Positions 12,942 through 45,547 of a stretch of DNA of 64,000 bases are shown in pieces. The position numbers and the translations under genes are program-made. Below the pieces are notes generated by a model that was given only the letters and a program-made list of their open reading frames with translations, ran no database searches and had not been told where the DNA came from. The first letter of the stretch is position 1. Every line of letters starts with the position of its first letter. Origin of the DNA: Candidatus Saccharimonadota bacterium (GTDB lineage: Bacteria; Patescibacteriota; Saccharimonadia; Saccharimonadales; JACOTW01); the NCBI GenBank assembly GCA_016178135.1, contig JACOTW010000003.1:472-64471 (forward strand). The letters run 5' to 3'.

Positions 12942-12950
12942 TGATACTGT

Positions 12951-13111: not shown

Positions 13112-13187
13112 GTAAGCTTAACAATTTTCGCTTCAAGCAGAATTACTCTGGAATTGGCGACAAAGTGTGAAGATAAAAGGGGGTAGC

Positions 13188-14015: not shown

Positions 14016-15229
14016 TTAGTGTCTAGAAATACAGAATTTGCTAGATTATCAGCACATTGAGGACAACTTTCTTCCTCGTCATCTTCCGATAGCCAACGCT
14101 TAGTGGCGATAAGCCAGGGTTGAAAGTCATGATAAGCGATGAGATCAGCCAACCGCCGTAAAATCCAGCCAATTTTTCCATAAAGTCTAATATTTCCCCA
14201 GAGAACAGCGGCCCAATACTTGCCTACCGGAGTTATATAAATAGGTTTTTTGGCCACATAAGGCAGGGGTAATTTTTTGTCGGCTAGTCGTATTAAATTG
14301 TTGGTAACTGTTACGGCATCGTGCAGGGCGGTTTGTGCCATACCGGAATATGGAGTGTCGGCGCTATCACCTATCACATAGATACCTGGCTCGGCTTGCA
14401 AATATTGGTCAACACGAACCTTTTTATTGCTCGCTAGCTGAAACTGATTTTCGGTAAAGAATGGATTGTTGGCTACGCCAGCGGTCCAAATGACCGTGTG
14501 GCTACGGATGGGTTTACTATTGATTATTAACGAATCTATGGTTTGGGCTTGAGCAGGTGTTTTGAGGTATAGTTTGATGCCGAGTTTGCGGAGTCGCCGC
14601 GTAACCTTGGCAGACAAATCCTTTGGCAGGTTTGGCAATAGTCTTGGCGCGGCCTCGACAAGGTCAATATGAAATTCTCGAGGCTTCAGGCCATGCCTTA
14701 TGCATATTTGCTTTAAATAGGCTGGTAAAGCGCCGGCTAGTTCTACACCAGTTGGTCCGCCGCCAATAATTACGTAACTAAGATCTGGTCGGTGGTCATC
14801 GAACAATTGTTTGTGTAGATGATTTTTTATCTCCTCTGCCTCCTCTAACGATTTCATACTATAGGATAGTTCGCTAAGTCCATTGATTCCGAAATAATTT
14901 GTTACCAATCCGATGCTTAAAATCAAAGCATCATATGAAAAGATTTGTCCGTTTTTTGTTTTCAGGCTATGGATTTTTCGGTCAATCAATACGACTTTAT
15001 CGCGAACAATAGTGATGCGTTTTTCATTGAATACTTCCGCAAGCGGAATACTAGAAATTTTGCGCTTACCACCAGTAGCTGTGCGATAAAGAGCTGGATG
15101 GAAGTCAAAACTATCGCTATCGCTGATTAGGGTTATGTGAAAGCGACCATCTTCCGCAAGGCGCAGAGCGGATTTTACTCCGCCAAAACCTCCCCCAACT
15201 ATTACTATTTGATGTTTTTTACTGTTCAT
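14006..15229 (-). CDS. ndh: Type II NADH:quinone oxidoreductase (NDH-2); the longer ORF-track extension to 15469 reads through an upstream repeat
   Basis: MNSKKHQIVIVGGGFGG first dinucleotide-binding motif at the proposed start, second GGGPTGVE motif, NDH-2 length ~407 aa. Confidence 0.75.
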   Translation of the reverse strand: MNSKKHQIVIVGGGFGGVKSALRLAEDGRFHITLISDSDSFDFHPALYRTATGGKRKISSIPLAEVFNEKRITIVRDKVVLIDRKIHSLKTKNGQIFSYDALILSIGLVTNYFGINGLSELSYSMKSLEEAEEIKNHLHKQLFDDHRPDLSYVIIGGGPTGVELAGALPAYLKQICIRHGLKPREFHIDLVEAAPRLLPNLPKDLSAKVTRRLRKLGIKLYLKTPAQAQTIDSLIINSKPIRSHTVIWTAGVANNPFFTENQFQLASNKKVRVDQYLQAEPGIYVIGDSADTPYSGMAQTALHDAVTVTNNLIRLADKKLPLPYVAKKPIYITPVGKYWAAVLWGNIRLYGKIGWILRRLADLIAYHDFQPWLIATKRWLSEDDEEESCPQCADNLANSVFLDTKLD

Positions 15230-17904: not shown

Positions 17905-18816
17905 CTAGGGCAACCATTTATCAAGCGAAATCAAGATAGAAAACAATACATTGACTATTAAGGATAGGTTAAACATACGACGAGCCCAGGCGATATTATC
18001 AGTAGCCTTGAATCCAGCCAGCGCAAAACGTAGCCAAAAAGTACTTACTAGGGTCATAATTATTAGATAAGTATAGCCAGCGTAGCCGAATATCGTTAAT
18101 CCACTTGAAGCTACGAAAAATGCCAGAATATAATAAAATATTTGTTTTTTGGCCTCTAAAATACCATTTTTTACGGTTAAGATTGGCAATTTGGCTGCGA
18201 CATAATCCTCTCTGCGGTAGATACCAATAGAGTAAAAGTGCGGCATTTGCCAGCAAACTAAAATGACGAACAGTAAAAAAGCCCCCCCGTCGAAGCGGTT
18301 AGTAACGGCTACGTATCCGGCGACTAAAGGTGCAGCGCCTGCCAGGCTGCCTATAACTGTACTGTGTATGGAGCGTCGCTTACTAATACCATAAGCAATC
18401 AAATATACTACAACCCCAAAAATACCCATGACGACGGTTCGCCAATTAGTAAATGAAGCCAAAATAATAAACCCCGATAAGCCCAAAAAGGTAGCAAATA
18501 TTAGAGCATTAACCGCGGGAATTGCGCCTGTTACTAGTGGTCGTTTTTTTGTTCTGGACATTTTTTTGTCTACGTCGCGATCTATGTAATTGTTAAAGAC
18601 GCAGCTTGACGCTATAACCAACGCAGTACCGGACAGGACTGCGGCCAGTAGCCCCCAATTAACATTGCCGCGAGCGGCTAGTAAAAAGCCGGCCGTGGCG
18701 GTAATTAGGTTGCCCCGAACAATACCTGGTTTGGTTAATTCATAATAGGACTTAAAATCCATTTTCTTAATGACGGTATATTCCTTCCTCTTTTTGTATA
18801 AATTTTTCAGTTTCAT
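17905..18816 (-). CDS. ctaB: Protoheme IX farnesyltransferase (heme O synthase, UbiA family)
   Basis: NNYIDRDVDKKMSRTKKRPLVTG prenyltransferase motif; position downstream of cyoABCD. Confidence 0.85.
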   Translation of the reverse strand: MKLKNLYKKRKEYTVIKKMDFKSYYELTKPGIVRGNLITATAGFLLAARGNVNWGLLAAVLSGTALVIASSCVFNNYIDRDVDKKMSRTKKRPLVTGAIPAVNALIFATFLGLSGFIILASFTNWRTVVMGIFGVVVYLIAYGISKRRSIHSTVIGSLAGAAPLVAGYVAVTNRFDGGAFLLFVILVCWQMPHFYSIGIYRREDYVAAKLPILTVKNGILEAKKQIFYYILAFFVASSGLTIFGYAGYTYLIIMTLVSTFWLRFALAGFKATDNIAWARRMFNLSLIVNVLFSILISLDKWLP

Positions 18817-19129
18817 CCGGGGACATTTGTCTATAATTTAGGTTATTCATAATCCACAACGAACCAAATACTAGGACGATAACAACTAGCCCGGCGAATA
18901 AAAAGGCCATCAAATTCCAGCGTGGCTTGGATTCTTGACCAAGATTCAGGAAGAATATTAATTGTACGAATAATTGAATGATTGCTAGGAAGATTATAGC
19001 TGCCTTAATAACTCCATGGGTGCCAAAAGTGTGTGCCGATAGGACGTGGTGATTAACCAGCCAATAGGCCAATGAAGTTAGAACGATAGAAGCTATATAT
19101 CCGATTAAACTCGACTTACCCAAAATCAT
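18767..19129 (-). CDS. cyoD: Quinol oxidase subunit IV (CyoD/QoxD-like); proposed ATG lies inside a MITE copy, longer ORF to 19297 is MITE read-through
   Basis: ~110-aa 3-TM protein following cyoC; ATGATTTTGGGTAAGTCGAG start is the MITE terminus. Confidence 0.6.
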   Translation of the reverse strand: MILGKSSLIGYIASIVLTSLAYWLVNHHVLSAHTFGTHGVIKAAIIFLAIIQLFVQLIFFLNLGQESKPRWNLMAFLFAGLVVIVLVFGSLWIMNNLNYRQMSPDETEKFIQKEEGIYRH

Positions 19130-19263
19130 CCGCTCCCAGAGTGAATTATCTCGAGCGAAAACTGTTTTGTCTGAAGGAGAGGTAGCCCTAGTTGCATCGA
19201 CAGAAGAAAAACTGTTTGCAGCCGATAGAATTCGATCTGGGGATGAAGGAGTTTTGGGTAAGT
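19110..19263. repeat. MITE-like palindromic repeat (orientation A) overlapping the 5' end of cyoD
   Basis: actcgacttacccaaaatcatccgctcccagagtgaattatctcgagcgaaaactgtttt...gtagccctagttgc...gatctggggatgaaggagttttgggtaagtt. Confidence 0.85.
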
Positions 19264-19298
19264 TGATTTTGTAGGGCTTGGATGAACGGCTAGACATA

Positions 19299-19868
19299 CT
19301 AGAGAACTCCCATTAGATAAACCATTGTAAATATAAAAATCCAGACAATATCCAAAAAGTGCCAGAACATACTAAAGGCAGTTAAGCGTCTGTTGGTTGA
19401 TGATATTATGCCGCGTTGATAAATTTGTGCCATCAAAACAGTGGCCCAAATCAAGCCGATTGTAATGTGTAAGCCGTGTGTTCCTACCAGAGTAAAGAAG
19501 GCCGACAAAAAGCCACTACGCTGCCAGCCATATCCTTCGCTAATAAGTTTTGAAAATTCACTTATTTCTAACCCCAAAAAGGTTAAACCGAGTAAAGAGG
19601 TAGTCATCAGCCAAAGGAGTACTCTAGCACTATTACCACGTCGCGCCGCCAATATCATGAGGCTACTAGTGAAACTGCTGGTTAATAAGATTATTGTCTC
19701 GCTCAATACAAACGGCAATTTGAAAATATCATTTCCAGACGGCCCACCGTAAGTGTTATTTCTAAGGACTGCAAAAGTAGCGAACAGGCTGGCGAACAAC
19801 ACACAGTCAGTCATTAAGTAAATCCAAAATCCAAAAGTTGATCTATCATCTGACTTGTGCTGAATCAT
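19299..19868 (-). CDS. cyoC: Cytochrome bo3-type quinol oxidase subunit III
   Basis: 5-TM heme-copper oxidase subunit III pattern ([21 protein letters not shown]...). Confidence 0.85.
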
Positions 19869-21895
19869 GCGTGTTCCTTACTTTCGTTTATCATGATCTC
19901 AGCGACTGTTATGGTTAGCTCTGTATCGTCATCAGACAGGCGCTGGATCAGGCATATCAACCCGCCAATAAAGCCAACAGCCGCCAACCACCAGATATGC
20001 CAAATAATACTAAAACCAGCCACCAGACTAAAACCAGCCACAAACAAACCCGCACCGGTATTTTTAGGCAATTTAATATCTTTATATTGTGGTTTTTGAT
20101 CGTTGTCGGCAGTTTTTTTCATCGCCCAAAAGGCATCGCGTTCATTAACTTTGGGTATAACGGCAAAATTGTAGAATGGTGGTGGTGAAGTAGTTGACCA
20201 TTCCAGGGTACGACCATCCCACGGGTCGCCTGTTTTATCAAATTCACGTTTTCCAACCAGAGAATCCAGTTTGATTAAAATTGTTCGTCCAACTGAACGT
20301 AACAGTGGTTTATTCCAGGTGGTTTGCAAATCAAAGACACTGACAATAATTTGCAATATTTGCAGCCCTACGCCAATTATTATACACAGCCCGCCAATGG
20401 CCGACACGATAAATAAAGATTGCCAACCTAACGTTGCGTCATAATGATCAAGGCGCCTGGTGGCTCCCATTAAACCAAGAACGTAGAGTGGCATAAAGGC
20501 TAGTAGGAAGCCAATAATCCAAAACCAAAAAGCTAATCGTCCAACGCGTTCATTTAGAATAATTCCAGTAAACTTTGGAAACCAATAAGCCAGACCAGCA
20601 AAAAAACCAAACAAAACACCGCCGATAATCATATTATGAAAATGAGCTACCAGAAATAGACTATTATGAACCTGGAAATCAATGGCTGGCACGGACATCA
20701 AGACGCCAGTTGCGCCACCAATAGTAAAAGTCATCACGAAGCCTAAAAACCATAACATAGGCGTAGTAAATCGAATCCGACCACGGAACATAGTAAACAA
20801 CCAGTTAAATATCTTGACGCCAGTTGGAATGGCTATAATCATTGTCATAATGCCAAAGAACGCATTGACATCAGCTCCGGCACCCATGGTAAAGAAATGG
20901 TGAACCCAGACAATAAACGACAAAAAAGTAATCCCGCCTAGTGCTCCGACCATTGACTTATAACCAAATAATCTTTTACTGGAAAAAGTAGCCACAACCT
21001 CTGAAAATATACCAAACGCTGGCAAGACCAGAATATAAACTTCCGGATGTCCCCAGGCCCATATCAAATTAATATACATCATGGCATTACCGCCCCCGCC
21101 AGACGTGAAAAAATGCATGCCCAATAAGCGATCTAGTGATAGCATGGCAAGCGTGGCTGTTAAGATTGGAAAAGCAAATAGGACCAGCATCATACTGCCT
21201 AGGACGCTCCATATAAAGATGGGCATTTTCATTAGTGTCATGCCTGGCGCGCGTAGTTTGATGATCGTGACTAAGAAATTAATGCCAGACATCAAGCTAC
21301 CTATACCGGCAATTTGCAGGCTCCATATCCAATAATCCACACCTACACCTGGACTGAAGTCTATACCAGATAAAGGTGGGTAGGCCAGCCAGCCAGCGGC
21401 TGAAAATTCACCAACAACTAACGAAGAGTTTATTAGTAATATACCAGCAATGTATAACCAAAAACTAAGTGAATTGAGGAATGGAAAAGCTACATCACGA
21501 GAGCCAATTTGCAAGGGTACGATCAGGTTAAGTAGCCCAAACATAAAACCCATGGCAACAAAGAAGATCATTATTGTTCCGTGTGCCGAGAAAACTTGCT
21601 GAAAAGTATCAGTACTAATTATGCCATGCGATCCGCCCACCGATGTTGCTTGCTGAATTCGCATCATGGCCGCGTCAGCCGCACCACGGAGTAGCATGAG
21701 TGTAGCGGCAATGATATACATTACACCAATACGTTTCGGATCTAGTGATGTTAGCCATTCTCTCCAAAGCCATTTCCACTTTTTGAAATATGTTAGTAGT
21801 ACAATAATGGCCAAAATTGATAATAAGCCGCCGATTATACCGCCAGTTGTGATTGGATCATGTTTGAAGGCCTCTAAAGTTAATCTTCCAAACAT
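19865..21895 (-). CDS. cyoB: Cytochrome bo3-type quinol oxidase subunit I (heme-copper oxidase catalytic subunit)
   Basis: [30 protein letters not shown] and His ligand motifs of HCO subunit I. Confidence 0.95.
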
Positions 21896-21898
21896 TGC

Positions 21899-22792
21899 CT
21901 ACATACTCCCGTCATTTGATGAGTTTAATTTATGGGTATGTGGTCCAAATTTGTTTATAACTGATTGATATAGGTTGTCATTAAGTAACGAATATGACGT
22001 AACTGGGTTGTTTAGACTTGGTGTGGCCAAGTGGGCGTAGGCATTCATGTCTAAACGCTGCCTTGTTTGTTGGCTATCCGCTACCCACCTTTCAAAATCA
22101 TCCAATGAAGATGCTTGAGCGGTAAAATTCATGCTGGCGTGACCCATACCGCTTAAATTTGCTGAAACGCCTCGAAAAGTACCGATTTGAGTAGCCAAAA
22201 GATGCAATCTTGTTGACATCCCACTCATTGCGTATATTTGCCCACCTAATTCTGGAATCCAAAAAGAATTCATCGGAGCATCGGCAGTTAGTTCAAAATT
22301 TAGTGGTGTGTCTACCGGAAATCGGACTTGGTTGATAGTTGCTATGCCCTGTTCAGGATAAATAAATAGCCATTTCCACTGCAGGGCAACAACCTGAATA
22401 GTTAAAGGTTTTTTGTTAACCGATATGGCTCGCATTGGATCCAGGTCATGGGAGCTACGCCACGTTACAACTGATAGGATCAAAATAACAATCAGCGGAA
22501 TGCCCCACCAAGCCACCTCCAGATACCTGTTATTATCCCACTCCGGAGAATATTTGGCATTTTTGTTAGAAGCCCTGTAATGCCATGTAATGCCTATGGT
22601 GAGCAAGAAAACTGGCGCAATCACGAACAAGCTTAACAGAACAGCAAACATTATTAATTGGCGTTGTTCAAATGCGATAAAGCCTTTTGGGGATAGCACA
22701 GATATATTGTTGCCACCAAGCATAAAAACGCCACCAATGATAACGGTCATGGCTAATAATATAAAAACGGGCAGTTTATGACCCTGGCGCAT
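21899..22792 (-). CDS. cyoA: Cytochrome bo3-type quinol oxidase subunit II
   Basis: N-terminal 2-TM + cupredoxin-like domain, operon position upstream of cyoB. Confidence 0.85.
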   Translation of the reverse strand: MRQGHKLPVFILLAMTVIIGGVFMLGGNNISVLSPKGFIAFEQRQLIMFAVLLSLFVIAPVFLLTIGITWHYRASNKNAKYSPEWDNNRYLEVAWWGIPLIVILILSVVTWRSSHDLDPMRAISVNKKPLTIQVVALQWKWLFIYPEQGIATINQVRFPVDTPLNFELTADAPMNSFWIPELGGQIYAMSGMSTRLHLLATQIGTFRGVSANLSGMGHASMNFTAQASSLDDFERWVADSQQTRQRLDMNAYAHLATPSLNNPVTSYSLLNDNLYQSVINKFGPHTHKLNSSNDGSM

Positions 22793-22894: not shown

Positions 22895-24346
22895 ATGGAT
22901 TTTATTCGTGTAAGTCCGGTAAACTATCAATACATGAAAGTTACGATCGTTACATGCTACAAAGATCCTGATTATGTACGGGCTCGTACTTTGCGTGCGG
23001 GCTTGGCTGCCAATGCGGGAGTTGAGATGACTATCGTAAAAAACAAACATAAAAATATCTTGCGCTATCCAGAGACTATTATCCGACTAGTCATTGACCG
23101 CATTAACAATAGACCAGATGCTTATATCTTGACGTTTCGCGGTTACGAAATATTGCCTTTTTTACAGCTAATCGCTTGGTCAAAACCAATTATATTTGAT
23201 GAATTTATCAATCCGTTGGAATGGTTGGCGGAGCCACGGCACGAAAAATGGGTAGGGCTGATTCCTAAAAAGGCCCTGAAGAAGTTTTACGTCGCTTTGC
23301 TTGGGCGTTGTCGTTTTATCCTGGCTGATACTCAAGCGCACGCCGATTACAGCGTCAAATTAAGCGGTCAGCAAACAAATGTACTGGACTCACCCAAAAC
23401 CCCTCGTTCCCAGGGCGAATCAGCTCGAGCGAAAACAGTTTTATCTGAAGGAGAGGTAGCCTTAGCTACATCGAGAGAAGAAAAACCGTTTGTAGCCGAT
23501 AGAATTCGATCTGGGGATGAGGGAGTTTTCGACAGGTCCAGTAAATACTGGGCAATACCTGTCGGTACTGACGAGACGGTTTTTGATTATAAACTGGACT
23601 TACGCAAAATCGCCCGTTCCCAGGGCAAATCAGTTCGAGTTGGAAGTGGTTTTACCGAAGGAGAGGTAGCCATATCTACATTGAAAGAAGGCAGACCACT
23701 ACCAGCCGAGATTAGTTGGTCTGGGGATGGGGGAGTTTTGCGTAAGTCCAGTAAAGTTCGGGTTTTAGAAAAATACTTCCAAGTATTTTATTACGGCAAC
23801 ATGTTACCCCTTCATGGACTGGAATATGTTTTGGAAGCGGCTGTTTTATTGAAAAATAATCAAAACATAAAGTTTTTGATCGTTGGGGGCAACAGTAGAA
23901 CAGTTAAAATGATAAAAAACGCGCAACAACAAGGAGCAAAAATTAAGTATCAGAACTGGATTCCATTTGAAGAATTACCAAAAGTTATTGCCACTTCTAG
24001 TTTATGTTTAGGCGGGCCATTTGGTAAAACAAATCAAGCACAAAAAGTAATTACAGGTAAAACTTACCAGTTTTTAGCCAGCGGTGCGGCTACGTTGATT
24101 GGCAATACAGAAGCCAGTGCTTTGTTTATTGATAAGAAAAATAGCTTAGTTGTGCCGCTAGCCGATCCGCTAGCTCTAGCTACGACCATTGATTGGGCTT
24201 ATCAGCACCGGCAACAACTTCCGGCAATTGGTCAAGCCGGCAACAGGCTTTATCAGGAAAACTTTTCGGTGCGTATTATTACTGGCGAATTGTCAGCTAT
24301 TTTGACCAAACTTGCTTCTGGCATGAGTAATAATCGCCATCACTAA
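22895..24346 (+). CDS. GT-B glycosyltransferase (GT4-like) whose inter-domain region carries two in-frame MITE insertions
   Basis: C-terminal GT1/GT4-type domain (…FLASGAATLIGNTEAS…VPLADP…); ORF stays open across 23383-23752. Confidence 0.55.
   Translation: MDFIRVSPVNYQYMKVTIVTCYKDPDYVRARTLRAGLAANAGVEMTIVKNKHKNILRYPETIIRLVIDRINNRPDAYILTFRGYEILPFLQLIAWSKPIIFDEFINPLEWLAEPRHEKWVGLIPKKALKKFYVALLGRCRFILADTQAHADYSVKLSGQQTNVLDSPKTPRSQGESARAKTVLSEGEVALATSREEKPFVADRIRSGDEGVFDRSSKYWAIPVGTDETVFDYKLDLRKIARSQGKSVRVGSGFTEGEVAISTLKEGRPLPAEISWSGDGGVLRKSSKVRVLEKYFQVFYYGNMLPLHGLEYVLEAAVLLKNNQNIKFLIVGGNSRTVKMIKNAQQQGAKIKYQNWIPFEELPKVIATSSLCLGGPFGKTNQAQKVITGKTYQFLASGAATLIGNTEASALFIDKKNSLVVPLADPLALATTIDWAYQHRQQLPAIGQAGNRLYQENFSVRIITGELSAILTKLASGMSNNRHH
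23383..23542. repeat. MITE-like repeat (orientation A) inserted in-frame in the glycosyltransferase ORF
   Basis: actggactcacccaaaacccctcgttcccagggcgaatcagctcgagcgaaaacagtttt...gtagccttagctac...ctggggatgagggagttttcgacaggtccagt. Confidence 0.9.
23593..23752. repeat. MITE-like repeat (orientation A), second tandem in-frame copy in the same ORF
   Basis: actggacttacgcaaaatcgcccgttcccagggcaaatcagttcgag...gtagccatatctac...ctggggatgggggagttttgcgtaagtccagt. Confidence 0.9.
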
Positions 24347-25486
24347 CAGTAGTCCTAGTAATATTAAGTAGATTCCGCGGTCGAGTATATTGGCGGCGAC
24401 TATGGTGTCGCTGTTGATGTGGTGCGAGCGTTGCGAGAAAAATAAAAATGATTCGCGAAACCCTAGAGCTCCTGGGGTTAACGAAACGAACAAAGCAAAG
24501 TTAGCAGCTCCTGTATATGTCAAAACTTGGGAAAAAGAAACCGACACATTAGTAGCACGAATCTCAAAAAAATAGATAGTTGCCACAAGACTTATTTGTA
24601 ATAGTGTGAAAAGTGCTAATTTACTTGCCAGAATACCTTTTTTAGAAATTGTCATTGTTTTACTCGACCCACCCAAAACCTCCCCACCCCCAGATGGAAT
24701 TCTGTCGGTTGCGAACAGTTTTTCTTCTCTAGATGTAGCTAAGGCTACCTCTCTTTCAGACAAAACAGTTTTCGCTCGAACTGATTCACTCTGGGAATGG
24801 ACGATTTTGTGTGAGTCGAGGTTGTTTTTCTTAAAATAAAACAAAACTCCAAAGATGCCTGCCCCAAATATTAACAAAAATAGTACACTGTGCCATGAAG
24901 ATTGACTACCAAAAAATAGAAATGAGGCACTAATAAAGGCAAAAAAAGCGTAATAAAGTAAAGTTGCTCCAGAGTAGGCTTTTAGACTAACGCCATGTTG
25001 TTTTTTTAAATAAACCGCCCGAAACCCGGGCCCGCTCTGTAGTGGTCCAAAAAAATTGACTATCGATGAGTAAATAGTCAGCAACGAGTTTTCTTTTAGA
25101 GACAACTTAACTCCACAAAGCCTAAGAATCGTATCGTAGACAAGAATTAGCGATGCAATTGTTAATACATACAAACCGAGTATTAATATCAGGGTACCTA
25201 CGTTTATTTGTCGTAATTGATCAATAACGCCTGAATGAGTTTTGAGATAGTAAAAAAAAGTTCCCAAAGTTAGAGCTAGGACACTAATACCAAGAAAACG
25301 TTTTAACCATCCTATACTCGACTTACTCAAAATCCCTCCATCCCCAGATCGAGTTCTATCGGCTGCAAACAGTTTTTTCTTTCTAGATGTACCTTCAGGT
25401 ACCTCCCCTTCAGATGAGACAGTTTTCGCTCGAGCTAATTCACTCTGGGAACGGACGATTTTGCGTAAGTTGAGTATAACCACCAA
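24293..25486 (-). CDS. Polytopic membrane protein (lysyl-PG-synthase-TM/flippase-like, UPF0104-type) with two in-frame MITE insertions; start uncertain
   Basis: Multiple TM helices, ...SLTPGALGFRE... motif; ORF continuous through repeats 24662-24820 and 25316-25475. Confidence 0.4.
   Translation of the reverse strand: MVVILNLRKIVRSQSELARAKTVSSEGEVPEGTSRKKKLFAADRTRSGDGGILSKSSIGWLKRFLGISVLALTLGTFFYYLKTHSGVIDQLRQINVGTLILILGLYVLTIASLILVYDTILRLCGVKLSLKENSLLTIYSSIVNFFGPLQSGPGFRAVYLKKQHGVSLKAYSGATLLYYAFFAFISASFLFFGSQSSWHSVLFLLIFGAGIFGVLFYFKKNNLDSHKIVHSQSESVRAKTVLSEREVALATSREEKLFATDRIPSGGGEVLGGSSKTMTISKKGILASKLALFTLLQISLVATIYFFEIRATNVSVSFSQVLTYTGAANFALFVSLTPGALGFRESFLFFSQRSHHINSDTIVAANILDRGIYLILLGLLLVMAIITHARSKFGQNS
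24662..24820. repeat. MITE-like repeat (orientation B) in-frame inside membrane-protein ORF
   Basis: actcgacccacccaaaacctccccacccccagatggaattctgtcggttgcgaacag...gatgtagctaaggctacctc...ctgggaatggacgattttgtgtgagtcgag. Confidence 0.85.
25316..25475. repeat. MITE-like repeat (orientation B) at the 5' end of the 24293-25486 ORF
   Basis: actcgacttactcaaaatccctccatccccagatcgagttctatcggctgcaaacag...gatgtaccttcaggtacctc...ctgggaacggacgattttgcgtaagttgagt. Confidence 0.9.
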
Positions 25487-25537: not shown

Positions 25538-27367
25538 ATGATGTTGAAGCAGCAGGAGAAAAAACGTGAAATTATTGATGTTGTCGCACGACTGTTGAGC
25601 TCGCGAAAATTTTTCTATATAACGATTGTTTTTTTTGTTTTTCAGGCAGCCTGGATAGCTTTGTCCGGACTTTATCCTATGGCTTTTGATGAGAATACTC
25701 ATCTTGGAATTATCAGGATATATGCTAATCATCTTTCACCTTTTTGGTCGAGACAGCCGGAAGGTACTGTTGTGTTAGGGGCTATTACTCGCGATCCCTC
25801 GTATTTTTACCATTACATTATGAGTTTTCCGTATAGGCTGATTGATGATGTTTTTCGCACGGAAATGTCCCAAGTGTTGGTACTTAGATTTATTAGTATA
25901 GTCTTTTTTGTTTGTGGCCTATTGCTTTATCGTCGGGTTCTCAAATACAGCAAAGCATCAGATCTAACTGTCAATGTCGTAATGGCGCTTTTGGTATTAA
26001 CGCCGGTTGTGCCATTTTTGGCTGCTCAAATCAATTACGACAATTTGATATTTGCACTTTGCGGACTGATTATCTTGCTAACATTGCAAATATCGGAAAG
26101 ACTTAACTGGACTTACGCGAAATCGCTCGTTCCTGGGGATAATCAGCTCGAGCGAGAACAGTCTCATCTGAAAGAGAAGCGCGTAAAGGTGCATCGAAAG
26201 AGAGAAAACTGTTTGCAGCCGAGGTTAGTCGGTCTGGGGATGAGGGAGCTTGCGACAGATCCAGTTGAACAGGGTCAAATTGACGCCAAACGAATCCTAT
26301 TGGTAATTATAGTTGGCTTGTTTGCCAGTATTGTGAAATATGCGTTTTTGCCAATTTTTATTGCAGTTTTAGTATGGTTAAGTTTTGATTTGAAGAAATA
26401 TGGTGGTGGTGCGATATTTAGACTGTTTGTGAATTCTTTTCGGAAGATTGTATGGCCAGTCAAAACCATACTTGTCATATTATTGATTATTGGAGCCGGA
26501 TTATTTACGGAACGCTACGGCATAAATACGCTACGCTACCATACGCCCACACCGGAATGCGACCAAGTTCTAAGTATTGAACAGTGCTTAGAATACGGAC
26601 CGTGGAGACGAAATTATCTCACCCATCAAGACAAAATCAACGGAAAACTTACTGTCAATAATGCTAGTGACCCTATTTCTTATACACTCAAAACATGGGC
26701 TGAAACAATGGTTTATAAATTGTTTTTTGTGAGTAATGGGCCGGCGAGTCAGTTTTGGATTGGTAATCCACTACCTGTACCGCTTGCTTTAGCCACGGGG
26801 TTTGGGATTGTTGGGGTTCTCTTGGCTTTGTGCTGGCAGAGAGAGTTACGCAAAAAATATAAACTGGGTCTTTTTGGTTTATTGACGGGTGTTTATGTAA
26901 TGGTTTTATGGGGTCAGAATTACATGGATTTTTTGCATATTGGTTATCCGTTTGCTATACAAGGACGATATTTGCTACCTATTTTGCCATTCGTATATCT
27001 TATATTAGTTCTAGCTATGAAGGCTCAACGACACACGAGTTTCGCACTTAGCCATTGCCCCAGATCACACCTGAACGGCTACAAACTTCCATCCCTCACT
27101 CAGCATAACTACAGTTATGCCTCCCTCGGATTAAAAGTTTTCGCTTGTTCAGTTGCAACCTGGCATCAACGGCTAAGTGCGAAACTCGTGCGACAGCTAA
27201 AAATAGGATTGGCGGTTACGATTTTGTTTATTTTGTTTATTCAGGGCGGTGGTCTGGTAACTTATATTGTTCGGAGTGACCAAACATGGTATTGGCCCAA
27301 TCAAACGATCGTGAATATCAATGATACCGCCCGCAAAATTCTTAAAACGTTTATTATTGGTTCTTGA
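25538..27367 (+). CDS. Large polytopic membrane protein, possible GT-C-fold glycosyltransferase (Pmt/ArnT-like); carries in-frame repeat insertions
   Basis: >12 predicted TM helices; first-loop AFDENTH (DE-type motif); adjacency to GT2 Ppm-like gene. Confidence 0.35.
   Translation: MMLKQQEKKREIIDVVARLLSSRKFFYITIVFFVFQAAWIALSGLYPMAFDENTHLGIIRIYANHLSPFWSRQPEGTVVLGAITRDPSYFYHYIMSFPYRLIDDVFRTEMSQVLVLRFISIVFFVCGLLLYRRVLKYSKASDLTVNVVMALLVLTPVVPFLAAQINYDNLIFALCGLIILLTLQISERLNWTYAKSLVPGDNQLEREQSHLKEKRVKVHRKRENCLQPRLVGLGMRELATDPVEQGQIDAKRILLVIIVGLFASIVKYAFLPIFIAVLVWLSFDLKKYGGGAIFRLFVNSFRKIVWPVKTILVILLIIGAGLFTERYGINTLRYHTPTPECDQVLSIEQCLEYGPWRRNYLTHQDKINGKLTVNNASDPISYTLKTWAETMVYKLFFVSNGPASQFWIGNPLPVPLALATGFGIVGVLLALCWQRELRKKYKLGLFGLLTGVYVMVLWGQNYMDFLHIGYPFAIQGRYLLPILPFVYLILVLAMKAQRHTSFALSHCPRSHLNGYKLPSLTQHNYSYASLGLKVFACSVATWHQRLSAKLVRQLKIGLAVTILFILFIQGGGLVTYIVRSDQTWYWPNQTIVNINDTARKILKTFIIGS
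26105..26265. repeat. MITE-like repeat (orientation A, diverged) in-frame inside membrane-protein ORF (read in a third frame)
   Basis: actggacttacgcgaaatcgctcgttcctggggataatcagctcgagcgagaacagtctc...ggtctggggatgagggagcttgcgacagatccagt. Confidence 0.85.
27034..27190. repeat. Variant palindromic element with 24-bp perfect terminal IR (cacgagtttcgcacttagccattg / caatggctaagtgcgaaactcgtg) and MITE-like core; in-frame in the same ORF
   Basis: IR read directly; core ggctacaaac...aaaagttttcgct resembles MITE interior; the right arm recurs inside the mosaic copy at 45301-45452. Confidence 0.7.
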
Positions 27368-28413: not shown

Positions 28414-28624
28414 TCATTCGACCTAAAAACTCCTCCATACCTAGACCGAATCCCATCGGTTATACCGGACTGACGAAAAACTCCCCCATCCCCAGACCAA
28501 CTAATCTCGGCTGATAGCGGTCTGTCTTCTCTCGATGTAGCTAAGGCTACCTCTCCTTCAGTCAAACCACTCCCAACTCGAGCTGATTTGCCCTGGGAAC
28601 GGGCGATTTTGCGACAGGTCCAGT
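28414..28624. repeat. Partial MITE fragment (28414-28469) followed by full MITE-like copy (orientation B, 28470-28624)
   Basis: …aaaaactcccccatccccagaccaactaatctcggctgatagcggtctg…gatgtagctaaggctacctc…cctgggaacgggcgattttgcgacaggtccagt. Confidence 0.9.
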
Positions 28625-28686
28625 ATAAACAATTTATCTTACATGGAAACTATTATTCCCCATTGTCGAAGATTTTAACAGATTAG

Positions 28687-29865
28687 CTAAAACAAGTCTA
28701 AGCCGTTTATTTCTGGGGGTAAAAAACCTTCGGGGTGTTTGAAGCCGGCTTTCCATTTAGTACCTTTGCCATAGCCCAGATCTTTCATGAGTTGGGTAGG
28801 TGCGTTGCGGAGATGAATTGGTACAGGAAGGTTGGGGTAATTTTTGGCGGTCTCTATGGCTTTATACATGGCGTTAGCTACGGCTCGTGACTTTTCACAT
28901 TTAGCAAGTACGGTAGCGCAGTGAAACAGATTGAATTGACATTCCGGCAAGCCAGTGCGTTCGACTGCCAAAAAAGTTGAAACAGCCAGATTCAAGGCTG
29001 CCGGTGCGGCAATACCGATGTCTTCGCTGGCGAAAATTACCATGCGTCTAGCGATAAATTTTGGATCTTCACCAGCTTGTATCATTCGTGCCATGTAGTA
29101 AAGGGCGGCATTAGGGTCATTGCCACGCAATGATTTTATAAAGGCACTGATTATGTTGTAGTGATTTTCTCCTTGCTTGTCATAGTCTGGAGCGCGCTTC
29201 TGAGCGGCCATAACTACTACTTCTGGTGTAATTGTGCCGTTGGTTAAACTTAATGCTAGCTCCAGATTGCCTAGGGCAATGCGGGCATCGCCACCCGATA
29301 GCTCGGCTATTAGATCAATACTGCGAATGGGTAAGCGTTTGGCAGTGATTTTTTCTGTCTTGGTGGCTTGTTTGATGATTTTAATAATTTCGGTTTTATC
29401 CAGAGGGTTTAATACTAGTACGCGCGAGCGACTAAGTAATGGTGCGATAACCTCGAAGCTGGGATTTTCAGTTGTTGCACCGATTAGTATTATGGTACCA
29501 GTTTCTACATGGGGTAAAAAGGCATCTTGTTGGGTTTTGTTGAAGCGATGAATCTCATCTACGAATAAAATAGTGCGTATACCCAGCCGCTGATTTTGTT
29601 GAGCACGATCAATAACCTTTGTTATGTCAGCTTTGCCGGAGGTTACGGCACTAAGTTCGGTGAATTCGACATCCAGCTCATTGGCCAGTATGCGAGCCAG
29701 GGTGGTTTTGCCAGAGCCAGGCGGTCCCCAGAGAATCAGGCTTGCGGGCTTATTTTTGGTAATAATTTCATGAACTATAGCCCCAGGAGCCAATAAGTGC
29801 TCCTGGCCGACCATCTGCTTTAATTTATCCGGCCGCATTCGTTCGGCCAACGGTCTTCTGTCCAC
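28687..29865 (-). CDS. rarA: Replication-associated recombination protein A (AAA+ ATPase RarA/MgsA)
   Basis: Walker A GPPGSGKTT, Walker B ILFVDEIHRFNK, sensor/arginine-finger region, C-terminal MgsA helical domain. Confidence 0.9.
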   Translation of the reverse strand: MDRRPLAERMRPDKLKQMVGQEHLLAPGAIVHEIITKNKPASLILWGPPGSGKTTLARILANELDVEFTELSAVTSGKADITKVIDRAQQNQRLGIRTILFVDEIHRFNKTQQDAFLPHVETGTIILIGATTENPSFEVIAPLLSRSRVLVLNPLDKTEIIKIIKQATKTEKITAKRLPIRSIDLIAELSGGDARIALGNLELALSLTNGTITPEVVVMAAQKRAPDYDKQGENHYNIISAFIKSLRGNDPNAALYYMARMIQAGEDPKFIARRMVIFASEDIGIAAPAALNLAVSTFLAVERTGLPECQFNLFHCATVLAKCEKSRAVANAMYKAIETAKNYPNLPVPIHLRNAPTQLMKDLGYGKGTKWKAGFKHPEGFLPPEINGLDLF

Positions 29866-29908
29866 CCTAACAGTATACCGGTTTTACTTAATACAACTAA
29901 AGTCCTGT

Positions 29909-30121
29909 CTACTCACCACCTTTTTGGACATAACCCTTCACAAACTCTTCAGCATTTTCTTCTAGTACTTCATCAATCTCATCCAGTAAACCGTCAAGTT
30001 CTTCTTTAATACCGGCACCCTTTGTGGCTGTTTCACCAACGCTATGCACTTGGTCTTCATTGGTTTCCTCTTCTCTACGGCGCTCTGGTGTTGGTACTCG
30101 TTTTTGTATACGTTCTGCCAT
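29909..30121 (-). CDS. pup: Prokaryotic ubiquitin-like protein Pup homolog (70 aa) ending in GGE
   Basis: C-terminal LLDEIDEVLEENAEEFVKGYVQKGGE aligns almost residue-for-residue with mycobacterial Pup (LLDEIDDVLEENAEDFVRAYVQKGGQ); strong RBS GGGAGG. Confidence 0.8.
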   Translation of the reverse strand: MAERIQKRVPTPERRREEETNEDQVHSVGETATKGAGIKEELDGLLDEIDEVLEENAEEFVKGYVQKGGE

Positions 30122-30248
30122 AGTTTGAGCCTCCCTTATGTTTATGAATCCAAAACCAGTATAACACCAGTTTCACACTTTTTCATTTGCCCGCGATTGG
30201 CAACGCGCATGTATAATACATAATATATATAAAAAAAAGGGGGGACAT

Positions 30249-31345: not shown

Positions 31346-31457
31346 ACTGGATTTGTCGCAAAATCGCTTGTTCCCAGAGCGAAAGTTCTATTTTATCTGA
31401 AGGTACATCGACCTGTTTGTCAGTTTGGGGATGATGGAATTTTGCGACAGGTCCAGT
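31346..31457. repeat. Shortened (~112 bp) MITE derivative (orientation A)
   Basis: actggatttgtcgcaaaatcgcttgttcccagagcgaaagttc...gtttggggatgatggaattttgcgacaggtccagt. Confidence 0.8.
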
Positions 31458-32251
31458 ACAATGTTCACAGTAATAGAAAGGCCTTCAAATTGGCAGATTA
31501 CAGACATGTTATTTTCTTTTCACTAGTTGGCGGAGTTTTTTCGTTAATCGGTGGAATTATATTATTGAGCAAAGAAAAATACGCCCAAGCATTAGCAAAA
31601 TACGCTACGCCGTTTGCGGCGGGGGCGTTATTGGCAGCTGTATTTTTGGATCTTATCAAAGAAGGTTTACAGGAATCCAATGCCAATACGGTGCTGACTT
31701 CGGCGTTGATTGGAATAGTAGTATTCTTTTTTGCGGAGCGGTTTTTGCATTGGTTTCACCACCATCATCAGCACGATGGCGCACCCGATGCCAGCGTTTC
31801 TTTGATAATTATTGGCGATACACTTCATAATGCGCTAGATGGGATAGCTATCGCGGCGGCATTTTTGGTCAGTATCCCAACTGGAATTGTTACGACATTT
31901 GCGGTGGCGGCCCATGAAATACCGCAGGAAATTGGTGATTTTGGCTTGTTATTACACAAGGGGCTGTCCCGAAAACGAGTGCTACTTGTCAATGTCTTGA
32001 GTGCCTTAGCAACTACCATGGCTGCCGTGCTGACGTTTTGGCTGGGCAGTGCTGACAGATTGCCGATAGGTGTTCTATTGGGACTGAGCGCCGGTCTATT
32101 GCTATACATTGCCATGAGCGATATTATCCCTGAAATCCATGAGCGATCAGACAACCAAAGACTGTTCGAGTGGCAACCGATTTTGCTCATGATTGGGGCA
32201 CTGGTTGTGGCCGTTTGCATCAATTTGGCACAACGATTTATTTCTGGATAG
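31442..32251 (+). CDS. ZIP-family divalent metal transporter (ZupT-like); start uncertain (possible TTG at 31442 or 31484)
   Basis: His-rich loop HHHHQHDG, HNALDG and HEIPQEIGDF ZIP signature helices. Confidence 0.75.
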   Translation: MRQVQYNVHSNRKAFKLADYRHVIFFSLVGGVFSLIGGIILLSKEKYAQALAKYATPFAAGALLAAVFLDLIKEGLQESNANTVLTSALIGIVVFFFAERFLHWFHHHHQHDGAPDASVSLIIIGDTLHNALDGIAIAAAFLVSIPTGIVTTFAVAAHEIPQEIGDFGLLLHKGLSRKRVLLVNVLSALATTMAAVLTFWLGSADRLPIGVLLGLSAGLLLYIAMSDIIPEIHERSDNQRLFEWQPILLMIGALVVAVCINLAQRFISG

Positions 32252-32266: not shown

Positions 32267-33343
32267 ATGATTGTAGTGGTTATTATTTTGGGGGTTTTGA
32301 ATGTGGGGTTATTGCTGTTTTTGATTGCTAAAAAGTCAAATGCTTCTGAAAGTGGTTCGGCGCAAATGCTCAAGGCTGATCTGACAGAGCTCAATAAAGG
32401 AGTTTTGGAATTAAAGGATTCTCTGAACGATAAAATTAGCGACAAGTTGGATAAAAGCCAAAAGCACATTAGTGATAGTATCCAGCGCCAGTTCGAACAA
32501 TCGGCCAAAATTATCACCGATATATCCGGTCGTTTGACTAAACTGGACGAGACAAACAAGCGGGTTGTAGATGTGGCGGATGAGCTAAAGAGCCTCCAAA
32601 ATGTGCTTCAAAATCCCAAACAGCGAGGAGTTTTGGGGGAGTTTTATCTAAAGCAAATACTCGAAAATATGTTACCGCCGGGGACTTTCGAATTGCAATA
32701 TCGCTTGGCGGAAGGGCTGGTGGTGGATGCCGTGATCAAGCTAGATGATAAGTTTTTGCCGATAGACAGCAAGTTTTCATTGGAAAATTACAACCGTTTA
32801 GTAGAAGCTAAGCCCGCCGAGCGTCCAGCGCTGGAAAAATTATTCAAAGAAGATCTCAAAAAACGTATTGATGAAACCGCCAAATATATTTTGCCCAAAA
32901 AAGGCACGCTGGAACAGGCGTTGATGTTTATCCCTAGCGAGGCAATTTATTATGATTTGTTGGCCAATAAGGTTGGAGTAGGTGGCGTGAACGGCCGGGA
33001 TTTGATGCATTATGCCGCCGTAGACAAGCGCGTAACGGTGGTTGGCCCGAGTACGTTATCCGCCATGTTGCAGATTGTTTCCCAGGGATTAAATAGTCTG
33101 GAAATTCAAAAAGACACCGAGCTCATCCGCAATAACGTCGAGCAATTGGGCAAACACCTTAAAAATGTCGACGGCTATTTTATCAGACTAGGCAATTCAC
33201 TCGGCGCGACTGTCGGGCATTTCAATAGCGCCCATAAAGAACTAGGCAAAGTCGATAAAGACGTGATAAAGATCAGTGGTGGCACAACACAAGTCGAACC
33301 CATTTTACTTGACCGACCAACTGTCGGGGAGGACATAGACTGA
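32267..33343 (+). CDS. rmuC: DNA recombination protein RmuC
   Basis: N-terminal TM + coiled-coil, RmuC core (…QRGVLGEFYLKQILENMLPPGTFELQY…). Confidence 0.8.
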   Translation: MIVVVIILGVLNVGLLLFLIAKKSNASESGSAQMLKADLTELNKGVLELKDSLNDKISDKLDKSQKHISDSIQRQFEQSAKIITDISGRLTKLDETNKRVVDVADELKSLQNVLQNPKQRGVLGEFYLKQILENMLPPGTFELQYRLAEGLVVDAVIKLDDKFLPIDSKFSLENYNRLVEAKPAERPALEKLFKEDLKKRIDETAKYILPKKGTLEQALMFIPSEAIYYDLLANKVGVGGVNGRDLMHYAAVDKRVTVVGPSTLSAMLQIVSQGLNSLEIQKDTELIRNNVEQLGKHLKNVDGYFIRLGNSLGATVGHFNSAHKELGKVDKDVIKISGGTTQVEPILLDRPTVGEDID

Positions 33344-33933
33344 TGAAAAACTGGACTATTGAAAAAGCATATCCGTACGTATTGCTCGTCACTGGGTTTT
33401 TGGGGCTAGTTGCTTCATTCATCCTGACCTATGACAAAATCATGATCCTGAAAGACCCTAATTTCATCCCTGACTGCAATATTAATCCAATTTTCAGCTG
33501 TGGTTCGGTCATGAGCAAGCCACAAGCTGAAGTATTCGGCATGCCCAACACGCTATTTGGGATAATCGCATTTAGCGTAATTGTAACCATAGCGGTCGCA
33601 ATGTTGTTCGGCGCAAAGTTTAAGCCGCTATTTTGGAAACTGCTTTTCGCTGGAACTTTGGCGGGGCTTGCTGGCGTTATCTATCTATTTTTCCAGGGGA
33701 TATACCGTATAAATGCCATTTGTCCTTATTGCGCTATGACCTGGGTCGTGGTCGTGGCGTTAGTCGTTTATACGTTTGTCTGGAATATAAAGCAAAAATA
33801 CATGACAGTGCCAAAAACTTTTGAGCAGTCGGCCAAGTTTGTTGTCCAAAACCACATCGGTGTCCTTGTGGTTATATATCTAATAATTCTTGGTTTAGTA
33901 TTGCAGCATTTTTGGTGGTATTTTGGTAGCTAG
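33343..33933 (+). CDS. Vitamin K epoxide reductase (VKOR) family membrane protein
   Basis: Loop cysteine pair CNINPIFSC and active-site CPYC in TM helix; ~5 TM helices. Confidence 0.7.
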   Translation: MKNWTIEKAYPYVLLVTGFLGLVASFILTYDKIMILKDPNFIPDCNINPIFSCGSVMSKPQAEVFGMPNTLFGIIAFSVIVTIAVAMLFGAKFKPLFWKLLFAGTLAGLAGVIYLFFQGIYRINAICPYCAMTWVVVVALVVYTFVWNIKQKYMTVPKTFEQSAKFVVQNHIGVLVVIYLIILGLVLQHFWWYFGS

Positions 33934-36295: not shown

Positions 36296-36376
36296 AACAG
36301 ACCACAGCTGACTGACTGCAAACTGTCTGTATTCTCTCGATGTACCTACGGGTACCCTTCAAGAATCCAAACAGTT
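36296..36376. repeat. Degenerate central fragment of the MITE family
   Basis: gctgcaaactgtctgtattctctcgatgtacctacgggtacccttcaagaatccaaacagttttcgt. Confidence 0.6.
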
Positions 36377-42946: not shown

Positions 42947-44722
42947 ATGAAGTATCTTTGGAGGATAATTAAATTTACCAGTTCGCTGAAGCGATACTAT
43001 TTGGCTATTTCCGTTATGACTATTTTGCTGGCGATTATGAGTCAACTCGTGCCGCTATTTACCAAGGCTGCTATTGATCAAGTAACTAAAAACGGTGGTC
43101 AAACAAACGTAGGCTTGGTTGCCCTCTACGCTTTTTTAATATTCTTAACAGATATTGGTCAATCGTTGTTCTCTAATATTAGTGGCTATTGGGGTGATAT
43201 TTTATCAGTCAAACTAAGGCAGTTTATGAGTAATAAATATTATGAACATTTGCTAAGTTTGCCACAGCGTTATTTTGACACTGAACTGACAGGTACGATT
43301 ATTAATCGTATGAATCGAGGCATTCAGGATATCAGTGACTTTATCCAGGTGTTTAGTAATAATTTTTTGCAGTTTATATTTAGTACTATTTTTACATTGG
43401 CGATCGTAGCTTACTATGCTTGGCCCGTAGCTCTTATGCTGGCGATGCTTTACCCTATATTTATTTGGATGACTGCCAAAACCAGCCATAAATGGCAGTT
43501 TTATCAAAGAAAAATCAACCAAGATATTGATATAGCTAGTGGTCGGTTCGCGGAAAGTATCGGACAGGTCAGGGTCGTAAAGAGTTTTATCCAAGAAGCC
43601 AGGGAGCTGAAGTTTTTTGATCAACAATTTCGTAAGGCTACGAAAACCGTTACTCCGCAGAGTCGTTACTGGCATGAGCGTGATAATCTACGCCGTACCA
43701 TATTGTCAGTAATCTTTTTCTTTGTATTTGTGTTTATTTTTGTGGAAACGGCTCGCGGTCGGTATAGCGTCGGTACCATGGTTTTGCTTATACAGTATTC
43801 TATGCTCATACGCATACCAATCTTTAGTATTAGCTTTTTAGTTGATCGTACCCAGCGAGCAGTAGCTAATAGTAAGGAGTATTTCGAGGTCATGGAACAG
43901 CAGCCGGATTTCACTGACAAACCAGGTGCAATGAAGCTGAAAGTTAAAGAAGGCCGGATTGATTTTGATAACGTTTCATTCAGCTATGACCTTAAACAGC
44001 CAGTCCTTAAAAATATAAATCTTGCTATTGCGCCGGATACAAAAGTTGCGTTAGTTGGTGAAAGCGGTGAAGGTAAAACAACCTTGACGAACCTATTATT
44101 GCGTTTTTACGAGCCAGAAAAAGGTCAGATACTTATAGATGATCAAAATATTAATGATGTTACTCAAGCCAGTTTACGTCAGCAAATCGGTGTTGTTTTT
44201 CAGGATTCAGCATTATTCAGCGGTACTATAAAGGAAAATATTTGTTATGCTAAGCCGAGCGTAACGGATGATCAGCTTCTTGCTGCTGCTAAAGCGGCTA
44301 ATGCTCATGAGTTTATTGAAAAATTACCGAACGGTTATGACACAGAGATTGGTGAACGCGGACTTAAACTGTCAGGTGGTCAAAAACAACGCATAGCTAT
44401 TGCACGTGCAATACTGAAAGACGCGCCAATATTAGTGCTGGATGAAGCAACCAGTAGTCTTGATAGTAAAAGCGAAAATATGGTTCAGCAGGCATTGGAA
44501 CGTCTCATGCGTGGACGCACCACTATCATTATTGCGCATCGGTTGAGCACTATTCAGAACGTAGATCAAATTATTACTATTAGAAATGGATGTATTGATG
44601 AAGTTGGTACGCCTAGTAAGCTTGCCCATAGCGGCGGAATCTACGATCAATTATTAAAATTACAACATGGGCAAACAGAGACAACCAAGAAGAAGCTTAA
44701 AGAGTTTGAAATTGCTGCCTAA
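42947..44722 (+). CDS. ABC exporter, fused permease/ATPase (MsbA-like)
   Basis: 6-TM N-domain; Walker A GESGEGKTT, signature LSGGQKQRIAIARA, Walker B ILVLDEATS. Confidence 0.9.
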   Translation: MKYLWRIIKFTSSLKRYYLAISVMTILLAIMSQLVPLFTKAAIDQVTKNGGQTNVGLVALYAFLIFLTDIGQSLFSNISGYWGDILSVKLRQFMSNKYYEHLLSLPQRYFDTELTGTIINRMNRGIQDISDFIQVFSNNFLQFIFSTIFTLAIVAYYAWPVALMLAMLYPIFIWMTAKTSHKWQFYQRKINQDIDIASGRFAESIGQVRVVKSFIQEARELKFFDQQFRKATKTVTPQSRYWHERDNLRRTILSVIFFFVFVFIFVETARGRYSVGTMVLLIQYSMLIRIPIFSISFLVDRTQRAVANSKEYFEVMEQQPDFTDKPGAMKLKVKEGRIDFDNVSFSYDLKQPVLKNINLAIAPDTKVALVGESGEGKTTLTNLLLRFYEPEKGQILIDDQNINDVTQASLRQQIGVVFQDSALFSGTIKENICYAKPSVTDDQLLAAAKAANAHEFIEKLPNGYDTEIGERGLKLSGGQKQRIAIARAILKDAPILVLDEATSSLDSKSENMVQQALERLMRGRTTIIIAHRLSTIQNVDQIITIRNGCIDEVGTPSKLAHSGGIYDQLLKLQHGQTETTKKKLKEFEIAA

Positions 44723-44756
44723 ATCCAGTACACTGGGACTATCTAGAAAGGGTTAG

Positions 44757-45293
44757 ATGGCAAAAACAAAACCATATGAACGTATTTTTGCGTTGACCGC
44801 TGCCTTAGTTTTTTTGACTACCACAGTCGCGATTAGTTTAGTGGTGGTGTGGCAGGCAAGACAAGATAACAAAGACAGCCAAACGGCTATTTCACAACAA
44901 GGGTCATTAAAGGAGGCTAAATTGGAAGGCACTAAATTAGCAGGCTTCACGCCGATAGACAAGGTAGAACAATTACAAATTTCTGATTTGCAGGTAGGCA
45001 CTGGAGCAGAAGTCAAAGAGGGTGCCACGGTAACGGCGCACTACACCGGAGCGTTAGCCAAAAACGGTACTATTTTTCAAAGCTCGCACGATGGCGCTAA
45101 TCAGCCAGTAGAATTTCCTTTGAATGGCGTAATTGCTGGCTGGACAAAGGGAGTGCCCGGCATGAAAGTAGGTGGCACGCGACGCTTAATTATTCCGGCC
45201 AGTTTAGCTTACGGAGAAAGTTCACCATCGGCAAATATCCCCCCAAACTCCGACCTAGTTTTTGATATAGAATTAACTGCGATCAAAAATTAA
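44757..45293 (+). CDS. FKBP-type peptidyl-prolyl cis-trans isomerase with N-terminal membrane anchor
   Basis: VTAHYTGALAKNGTIFQSSHD…GWTKGVPGMKVGGTRRLIIPASLAYGE FKBP motifs. Confidence 0.85.
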   Translation: MAKTKPYERIFALTAALVFLTTTVAISLVVVWQARQDNKDSQTAISQQGSLKEAKLEGTKLAGFTPIDKVEQLQISDLQVGTGAEVKEGATVTAHYTGALAKNGTIFQSSHDGANQPVEFPLNGVIAGWTKGVPGMKVGGTRRLIIPASLAYGESSPSANIPPNSDLVFDIELTAIKN

Positions 45294-45452: not shown

Positions 45453-45547
45453 AAATACAAAAACACAACATGTAGCGTATTGCATAAGTATCAAAACGCT
45501 ATACAATAAGTCTTGCAAGCTTTTTTATAGGGCTTACGCATTACCCT

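Follow-up and report, generated by a model that had tools for sequence, protein, structure and literature searches.

Pupylation is regarded as a pathway of Actinobacteria in which the tag is encoded alongside its ligase, depupylase, and unfoldase. The genes of the PPS locus lie close to one another (PMC8223512). A C-terminal Glu marks the ligation-competent form of Pup, as opposed to a C-terminal Gln, and a subset of Actinobacteria has lost prcAB and kept pupylation (PMC8223512). A further modifier, UBact, is mentioned in two papers (PMC7203096 and PMC11354881). In 4/4 of the canonical loci that we used for reference, all from Acidimicrobiia (L012, L135, L136, and L137), dop directly precedes pup and prcB-prcA directly follow it, and mpa and/or pafA come within a few kb wherever the contig is long enough. 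By contrast, the pup gene examined here belongs to an organism that is not an actinobacterium, and none of these partners occurs within about 30-40 kb on either side of it. It lies on a 64 kb stretch of a Saccharibacteria genome (the window), whose features are collected in Table 1. The literature that we searched contains no study that connects Saccharibacteria or Patescibacteria to pupylation.

Table 1. Features of the 64 kb window, with positions counted from its first nucleotide.
Feature	Position	Strand	Remarks
pup	29909..30121	(-)	ATG start, 70 aa, C-terminus GGE; product MAERIQKRVPTPERRREEETNEDQVHSVGETATKGAGIKEELDGLLDEIDEVLEENAEEFVKGYVQKGGE
Shine-Dalgarno AAGGGAGG	30130..30137	(-)	8 nt upstream of pup ATG; read directly off the sequence
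Promoter-like site	30158..30186	(-)	ATGAAA, 17 nt, TG-TATACT (extended -10); consensus match only
Gap from pup stop to longest rarA start	29866..29908	(-)	43 bp
rarA/mgsA, AAA+ recombination-associated ATPase	28687..29865	(-)	Pfam MgsA_C (160 bits), AAA_assoc_2, AAA
Full hairpin-repeat copy	28460..28625	(-)	with partial copies at 31346-31460 brackets the rarA-pup-unk210-zincin block
Repeat copies	4487-4656, 6207-6356, 7231-7391, 12950-13115, 13860-14023, 19121-19263, 23380-23542, 23593-23752, 24646-24809, 25313-25465, 26106-26251, 28460-28625, 60954-61103
Partial repeat copies	8023-8404, 31346-31460, 36325-36356, 45424-45453
Leucyl-tRNA synthetase	772-3708	(+)	978 aa; NUDIX hydrolase domain, residues 392-506, about 1945-2289
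Gly/Thr/Ser-rich ORF	8519-10135	(+)	538 aa; only elevated-GC stretch, 0.50 vs 0.43
Nickel superoxide dismutase	13167-13577	(+)
cyoABCD-cyoE-type quinol oxidase operon	17905-22792	(-)	complete
VKOR	33343-33933	(+)
Ribulose-phosphate 3-epimerase fused to split transketolase N-terminal half	51406-52896	(+)	496 aa
Transketolase C-terminal half	52889-53884		next gene after the epimerase fusion

The length of the encoded protein fits the small size of Pup (about 60-70 aa), and a Pfam scan matched its residues 13-70 to the Pup family (PF05639) with 74.9 bits (E=9.7e-21; family cutoff of 27 bits). In a phmmer search against the PDB, residues 37-70 aligned to M. tuberculosis Pup (E=6e-11), specifically to the Pup chains of the Mpa complexes 3M91, 3M9D, and 7PX9, while residues 43-70 aligned to the 28-residue Pup fragment bound to Dop in 7OY3 and residues 44-70 to the Pup segment bound to PafA in 4BJR. 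By these alignments, the window Pup has the conserved C-terminal stretch through which Pups bind PafA, Dop, and the coiled coil of Mpa. All of the columns that are invariant in an alignment of this protein with nine other Pups (alignment A3) are kept (20/20), and its C-terminal end reads ...YVQKGGE. The protein passes every sequence test for a Pup, and its identity is not new, since database pipelines already label the gene as such: the identical protein is named 'ubiquitin-like protein Pup [Candidatus Saccharibacteria bacterium]' at NCBI (MBI1856919.1 and MBI3338053.1). A preliminary description of this DNA had called the gene a clear Pup homolog with a ligation-ready C-terminal Glu, and both statements are borne out. 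Its further statement that the C-terminal 35 residues are almost identical to those of mycobacterial Pup holds as strong similarity; identities over residues 37-70 number only 25/34 to the GGE construct 3M91 and 24/34 to the native GGQ Pup of 7PX9, and 'almost identical' therefore overstates the likeness.

None of the genes for PafA, Dop, Mpa/ARC, or the proteasome was found in the 64 kb window or in the ~6 kb past its right end (L139). These searches comprised a Pfam scan of 44 ORFs, essentially all of the long non-overlapping ones of the window; tblastn of Mpa, Dop, PrcB, PrcA, and PafA from a canonical Acidimicrobiales operon (L012) against the window; and a six-frame HMM search of the window with PafA/Dop, Mpa, and PrcAB models and heuristic filters off, neither of the latter two giving a proteasome match with E below 0.1. 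For pafA (PF03136), as for dop, there was no Pfam, tblastn, or HMM match in either the window or L139. Two large Pfam-less ORFs (8519-10135 and 55926-57182) were considered as divergent ligases and rejected on the results of the PafA/Dop HMM and a permissive Pfam scan. The absence of pafA, dop, and prcAB within ±15 kb, as first reported, is thus confirmed and now extends to at least 30 kb on one side of pup and 40 kb on the other, the stretch searched amounting to about 70 kb of a 654 kb contig. In sum, this is a genuine, intact, actinobacterial-type Pup that is solitary over about 70 kb of a Saccharibacteria genome, and its locus fails the defining PPS feature, which is linkage to pafA, dop, mpa, and prcAB.

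Saccharibacteria are found together with Actinobacteria, and contamination of MAG bins can occur, so that a fragment of an actinobacterial contig might have been mis-assembled or mis-binned into a Saccharibacteria MAG; the assignment of a second pup to Saccharibacteria, on a 7.7 kb contig with a GC of 0.54 (L010), is indeed by binning alone. For the window, the junctions between pup and the Saccharibacteria genes are the same on ten contigs drawn from NCBI and Logan assemblies, which represent different assemblers and several sequencing runs, and the largest of which measures 654,487 bp (GCA_040960765.1). All ten are >99% identical, with zero differences in pup, and the window itself is a strain variant that shares 99.26% identity with the 654,487-bp contig and matches several Logan contigs at 100%. 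The GC of pup (0.437) equals that of the genome (0.434), and a neighbouring stretch shares 84.5% identity with a named Saccharibacteria MAG. A chimera is excluded by the agreement in junctions between independent assemblies and in GC between pup and the genome, and we find an artefact of assembly or binning barely credible.

Among more than 7,900 Pup sequences retrieved, the nearest to the window Pup (P0002-P0004) are 66-68% identical to it, and P0003, P0004, and P0015 are encoded in canonical loci, with dop immediately upstream, prcB-prcA downstream, and mpa or pafA where the contig reaches. The window Pup has the same family, length, and GG[EQ] end as the canonical actinobacterial Pups (M. 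tuberculosis Rv2111c and those of the four Acidimicrobiia loci), as well as the same C-terminal segment for PafA, Dop, and Mpa binding and a similar N-terminal MAER.QKR.P motif; its identity is 66-68% to the Pups of L135 and L137, 59% to that of L012, and 57% to that of L136. Such relatives point to a donor of actinobacterial, Acidimicrobiia-like type. Relative to P0003, about half of the N-terminal residues differ, compared to 4/32 in the C-terminal half, as is the case among functional Pups. A host-derived origin, one of the possibilities raised in the preliminary description, is supported by these nearest relatives in actinobacterial dop-pup-prcBA loci and by the restriction of the hosts of cultured Saccharibacteria to Actinobacteria (PMC11659515). 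Only two Saccharibacteria-named Pups occur among the best 240 matches of two protein searches. The Pup of the 7.7 kb contig L010 (P0038, Saccharimonadales) is encoded between unrelated genes, again solitary and with no partners on the contig; its identity is 56% to the window Pup and 65% to the same actinobacterial Pups, and its nearest relatives are Acidimicrobiia. Since P0038 is no closer to the window Pup than to actinobacterial Pups, a single ancestral capture is not supported.

We hypothesize, and consider rather likely, that pup was captured from Actinobacteria, that its product is still a canonical Pup, and that its ligase is supplied in trans. The capture would have been a horizontal one from the host phylum of the cultured Saccharibacteria. 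The putatively disordered C-terminal half (residues ~37-70) would dock on PafA/Dop/Mpa-type proteins, and the side chain of the terminal Glu would be joined to lysines by a PafA-type ligase supplied in trans, with no prior deamidation by Dop. Counting against this explanation, pup was found in one species-level lineage only, and relatives with a RarA 64-72% identical to that of the window have no pup beside rarA. The agreement in GC, moreover, may stem from a donor whose GC was already similar and not from amelioration.

The gene is resident in this genome, and the signals around it make it probably translatable. In addition to its strong Shine-Dalgarno sequence, the promoter-like site scores 9/12 consensus positions plus TG in a consensus scan and falls within a 127-bp divergent intergenic region. 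No terminator-like site was found in the gap between pup and the longest form of rarA, the NCBI-called start of which is 71 nt after pup, and co-transcription of the two genes is possible. The preliminary description was correct in placing pup beside rarA, the downstream same-strand gene being identified by its MgsA_C match. This arrangement is specific to one species-level population: in a metagenome scan with RarA, 0/80 other rarA loci, spanning 745 kb, encoded a Pup, and none encoded pupylation or proteasome partner genes. At the three closest of these loci, pup is absent beside rarA and the flanking synteny is not shared, and L055 and L056 have only rarA in common with the window locus.

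An alternative given the position of pup, which precedes the co-oriented rarA by 43-71 bp with no intervening terminator, is a ligase-independent role in the epibiont, in which Pup would be a non-covalent, disordered ligand or regulator of an AAA+ protein such as RarA. Canonical Pup does bind the AAA+ unfoldase Mpa non-covalently (3M91 and 7PX9). However, the RarA encoded here is an ordinary protein of AAA, AAA_assoc_2, and MgsA_C domains that has neither the Pup-binding coiled coil nor the OB domains of Mpa, and we rejected it as an Mpa-like partner because their similarity is generic to AAA+ proteins (26% over 103 aa; 15.8 bits). The lack of pup at the other rarA loci argues against such a role as well, and strict conservation of the GGE ligation end would go unexplained if there were no ligase. 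We regard this alternative as quite improbable, and rarA is probably an incidental neighbour.

A dispersed repeat of ~165 bp occurs about once per 3 kb in the window. Its copies have terminal inverted repeats and invariant cores (GGAGAGGTAGC and TCTGGGGATG), form two subfamilies, and fold into one long hairpin of 47 pairs (-48 kcal/mol), 7 of which show compensatory changes. An Rfam search of the window returned tRNA only, so that the element belongs to no described RNA family; it is MITE-like and may have driven rearrangements between relatives. On a contig of a related MAG (L017; ZIP and RmuC with 87% and 96% aa identity, respectively), gene order differs, and the contig itself ends at a repeat copy beside the zincin gene. 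Some copies lie inside ORFs, namely an LPG-synthase-like ORF at 24293-25486 (-) (residues ~3-58 and ~221-275), a DUF2142-like ORF at 25538-27367 (+) (~185-243), and a CyoD-like ORF at 18767-19297 (-), and the peptides that they encode match repeat copies of other MAGs. These may be in-frame insertions reminiscent of Rickettsia palindromic elements, or else over-extended ORF calls. The repeat core is also found on two contigs of 53-63 kb (L016 and L018; JACOXZ010000001.1 and JACOXZ010000010.1) from a groundwater MAG labelled Candidatus Liptonbacteria, which reflects either an element that crosses CPR lineages or mis-binned Saccharibacteria DNA. In the 105 kb retrieved by means of the repeat core, within a collection of species-representative genomes, from three related Saccharibacteria MAGs and this 'Liptonbacteria' MAG, neither Pup nor its partners were found.

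Elsewhere in the window are housekeeping genes, along with the cyo-type quinol oxidase operon and the genes for Ni-SOD and VKOR. These three form an oxygen-adapted set, partly of actinobacterial flavour, that is unusual for a reduced CPR genome. The NUDIX insertion of the leucyl-tRNA synthetase sits after the editing domain, an unusual architecture. The Gly/Thr/Ser-rich ORF at 8519-10135 has no Pfam or PHROGs match and possibly encodes a surface or adhesin-like protein of foreign origin; a resemblance to actinophage tail fibres was considered and found no support in PHROGs.

Two versions of the preferred explanation, capture with a ligase supplied in trans, differ in where that ligase resides. 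In the first, which is the conservative one, the genome itself has a distant gene for PafA, and perhaps also for Dop and ARC, the locus having become scattered. The repeats would be a means of such scattering, since they are recombinogenic, abundant, and bracket the pup block, and recombination between dispersed copies is perhaps how it came about. The stretch read amounts to about 70 of the 654 kb, and such genes would lie in the other ~585 kb of the contig or on other contigs of the genome; on prior expectation, we consider this version possible. In the second, which is more novel, the genome has no ligase and Pup acts on the machinery of the actinobacterial host.

Solitary pup genes also occur in phages and viruses. 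On a phage contig from Logan (L011) that encodes a tail tube, a tape measure, and Dit, a 76-aa Pup (P0031; L011:10001-10231) follows just after the endolysin gene, and a pattern-based scan of IMG/VR identified 23 viral contigs (L032-L054) with a full-length pup that ends in GGE or GGQ. These 24 carriers account for about 16 distinct Pups and range in GC from 0.32 to 0.70, the IMG/VR contigs from 0.38 to 0.70, and several of the viral flanks encode a head or portal-type protein, a primase, a ribonucleotide reductase, or a phage-only family. Within the flanks of up to 10 kb that were retrieved for L011 and the 23 IMG/VR loci, there is no Mpa, Dop, PrcAB, or PafA, and a scan with PafA/Dop motifs found no PafA/Dop relatives in 2.9 million IMG/VR viral contigs. 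PHROGs holds no Pup family, deposited phage genomes yielded nothing when searched by tblastn with Pup (possibly on account of the low-complexity filter), and the literature searched contains no relevant paper on a phage-encoded Pup. In each carrier checked, the GC of pup tracks that of the resident genome. The window Pup is 68% identical to cellular Pups, compared to 56% or less to any phage Pup. We considered whether the carriers are phages of Saccharibacteria and rejected the idea, as they share no genes with the Saccharibacteria sequences beyond pup save two weak matches of 24-37% identity. A lone pup thus recurs in genomes that depend on the machinery of another cell, and pup has repeatedly been captured by itself.

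Separately, one 159 kb GenBank record from human faeces labelled 'Bacteriophage sp.' (MT835496.1) matches PafA in two places, the better of them (43724-45079) with 47% identity over 99% of the query, and is the only record with a PafA match among 50,697 phage records. It is either a jumbo phage that carries a ligase or a mislabelled actinobacterial contig.

Given that Saccharibacteria grow on Actinobacteria and are able to lyse them, pup could be a neutral passenger, that is, recently acquired host or phage DNA that has not decayed and has no function in the Saccharibacterium. Its restriction to one >99%-identical population, its absence beside rarA in the closest relatives available, the lack of partner genes within about 70 kb, and the rarity of Pup in the phylum are all in keeping with this. 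Phage Pups span such a range of GC that a GC-matched donor is conceivable. On the other hand, the ORF is intact with every family-invariant position kept, the ribosome-binding and promoter-like signals are in place, and the nearest of >7,900 Pups is only 68% identical, which implies either long residence or an unsampled donor. Small parasitic genomes are also generally thought to lose useless DNA quickly, which counts against a passenger, and we judge this explanation rather improbable. A decaying transferred fragment, the fallback offered in the preliminary description, is disfavoured by the intact invariant positions, the strong Shine-Dalgarno sequence, and the native composition.

Returning to capture with a ligase supplied in trans, the version in which the ligase is that of the host is favoured by the recurrence of captures limited to pup and by the parallel with phages. 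Here Pup would either supply the host with additional tag in ligatable form or compete for Mpa/Dop, which is how the lone pups of phages must act. Its weakness is that a 70-aa cytoplasmic protein with no signal peptide needs a route into the host cytoplasm, and none is known; we place it on the unlikely side. Extending this idea, we also consider, as an unlikely reading, that a lone ligation-ready pup is a weapon shared by parasites of Actinobacteria, both phages and at least one Saccharibacterium. The carriers would bring only the tag and exploit the PafA, Dop, and Mpa of the host, perhaps flooding or redirecting its pupylome or blocking Mpa and Dop. If this were true, a Saccharibacterium would deliver a cytoplasmic protein to its host in a cross-cell hijack of a bacterial ubiquitin-like system.

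The novelty lies in the setting: a conserved pup without linked partners in a bacterium that lives as an obligate epibiont on Actinobacteria, and lone pups borne by phages as well. Together these solitary genes break the picture of a co-encoded pathway. If the genome has a distant pafA, transfer from the host would have brought pupylation into the candidate phyla radiation. If it has none, the tag must be put to use by the enzymes of another organism, which would make it the equivalent in bacteria of the ubiquitin that viruses encode and might also testify to proteins passing from the epibiont into its host. More generally, parasites of Actinobacteria may borrow the tagging machinery of their hosts.

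Among known systems, the proteasome-less Actinobacteria resemble the window in having no proteasome gene near pup, but they keep pafA, dop, and arc in the locus, whereas the window neighbourhood is without ligase, depupylase, and unfoldase as well. They correspond to the proteasome-independent role suggested in the preliminary description. UBact, which Lehmann et al. 2017 reportedly described as a Pup-like modifier of some Gram-negative and candidate phyla, is likewise a Pup-related tag outside Actinobacteria that is said to occur in some candidate-phylum genomes. Its C-terminal signature differs, and it is accompanied by PafA, Dop, Mpa, and proteasome homologues of its own; set against these features, the window protein is not UBact, being a standard Pfam Pup with a QKGGE end, actinobacterial nearest relatives, and no partners nearby. 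The lone pups of phages resemble the window gene in that each is full-length, partnerless, and conserved in its C-terminal half, in a carrier that depends on another cell. They differ in that a phage Pup is made in the host cytoplasm with the host PafA at hand, whereas the Saccharibacterium is a separate cell. Eukaryotic viruses encode ubiquitin as well, e.g. the v-ubi of baculoviruses. Fold and enzymology are unrelated in that case and we claim no homology; the likeness is one of how the system works, in which the modifier comes from the parasite and the conjugation enzymes from the host.
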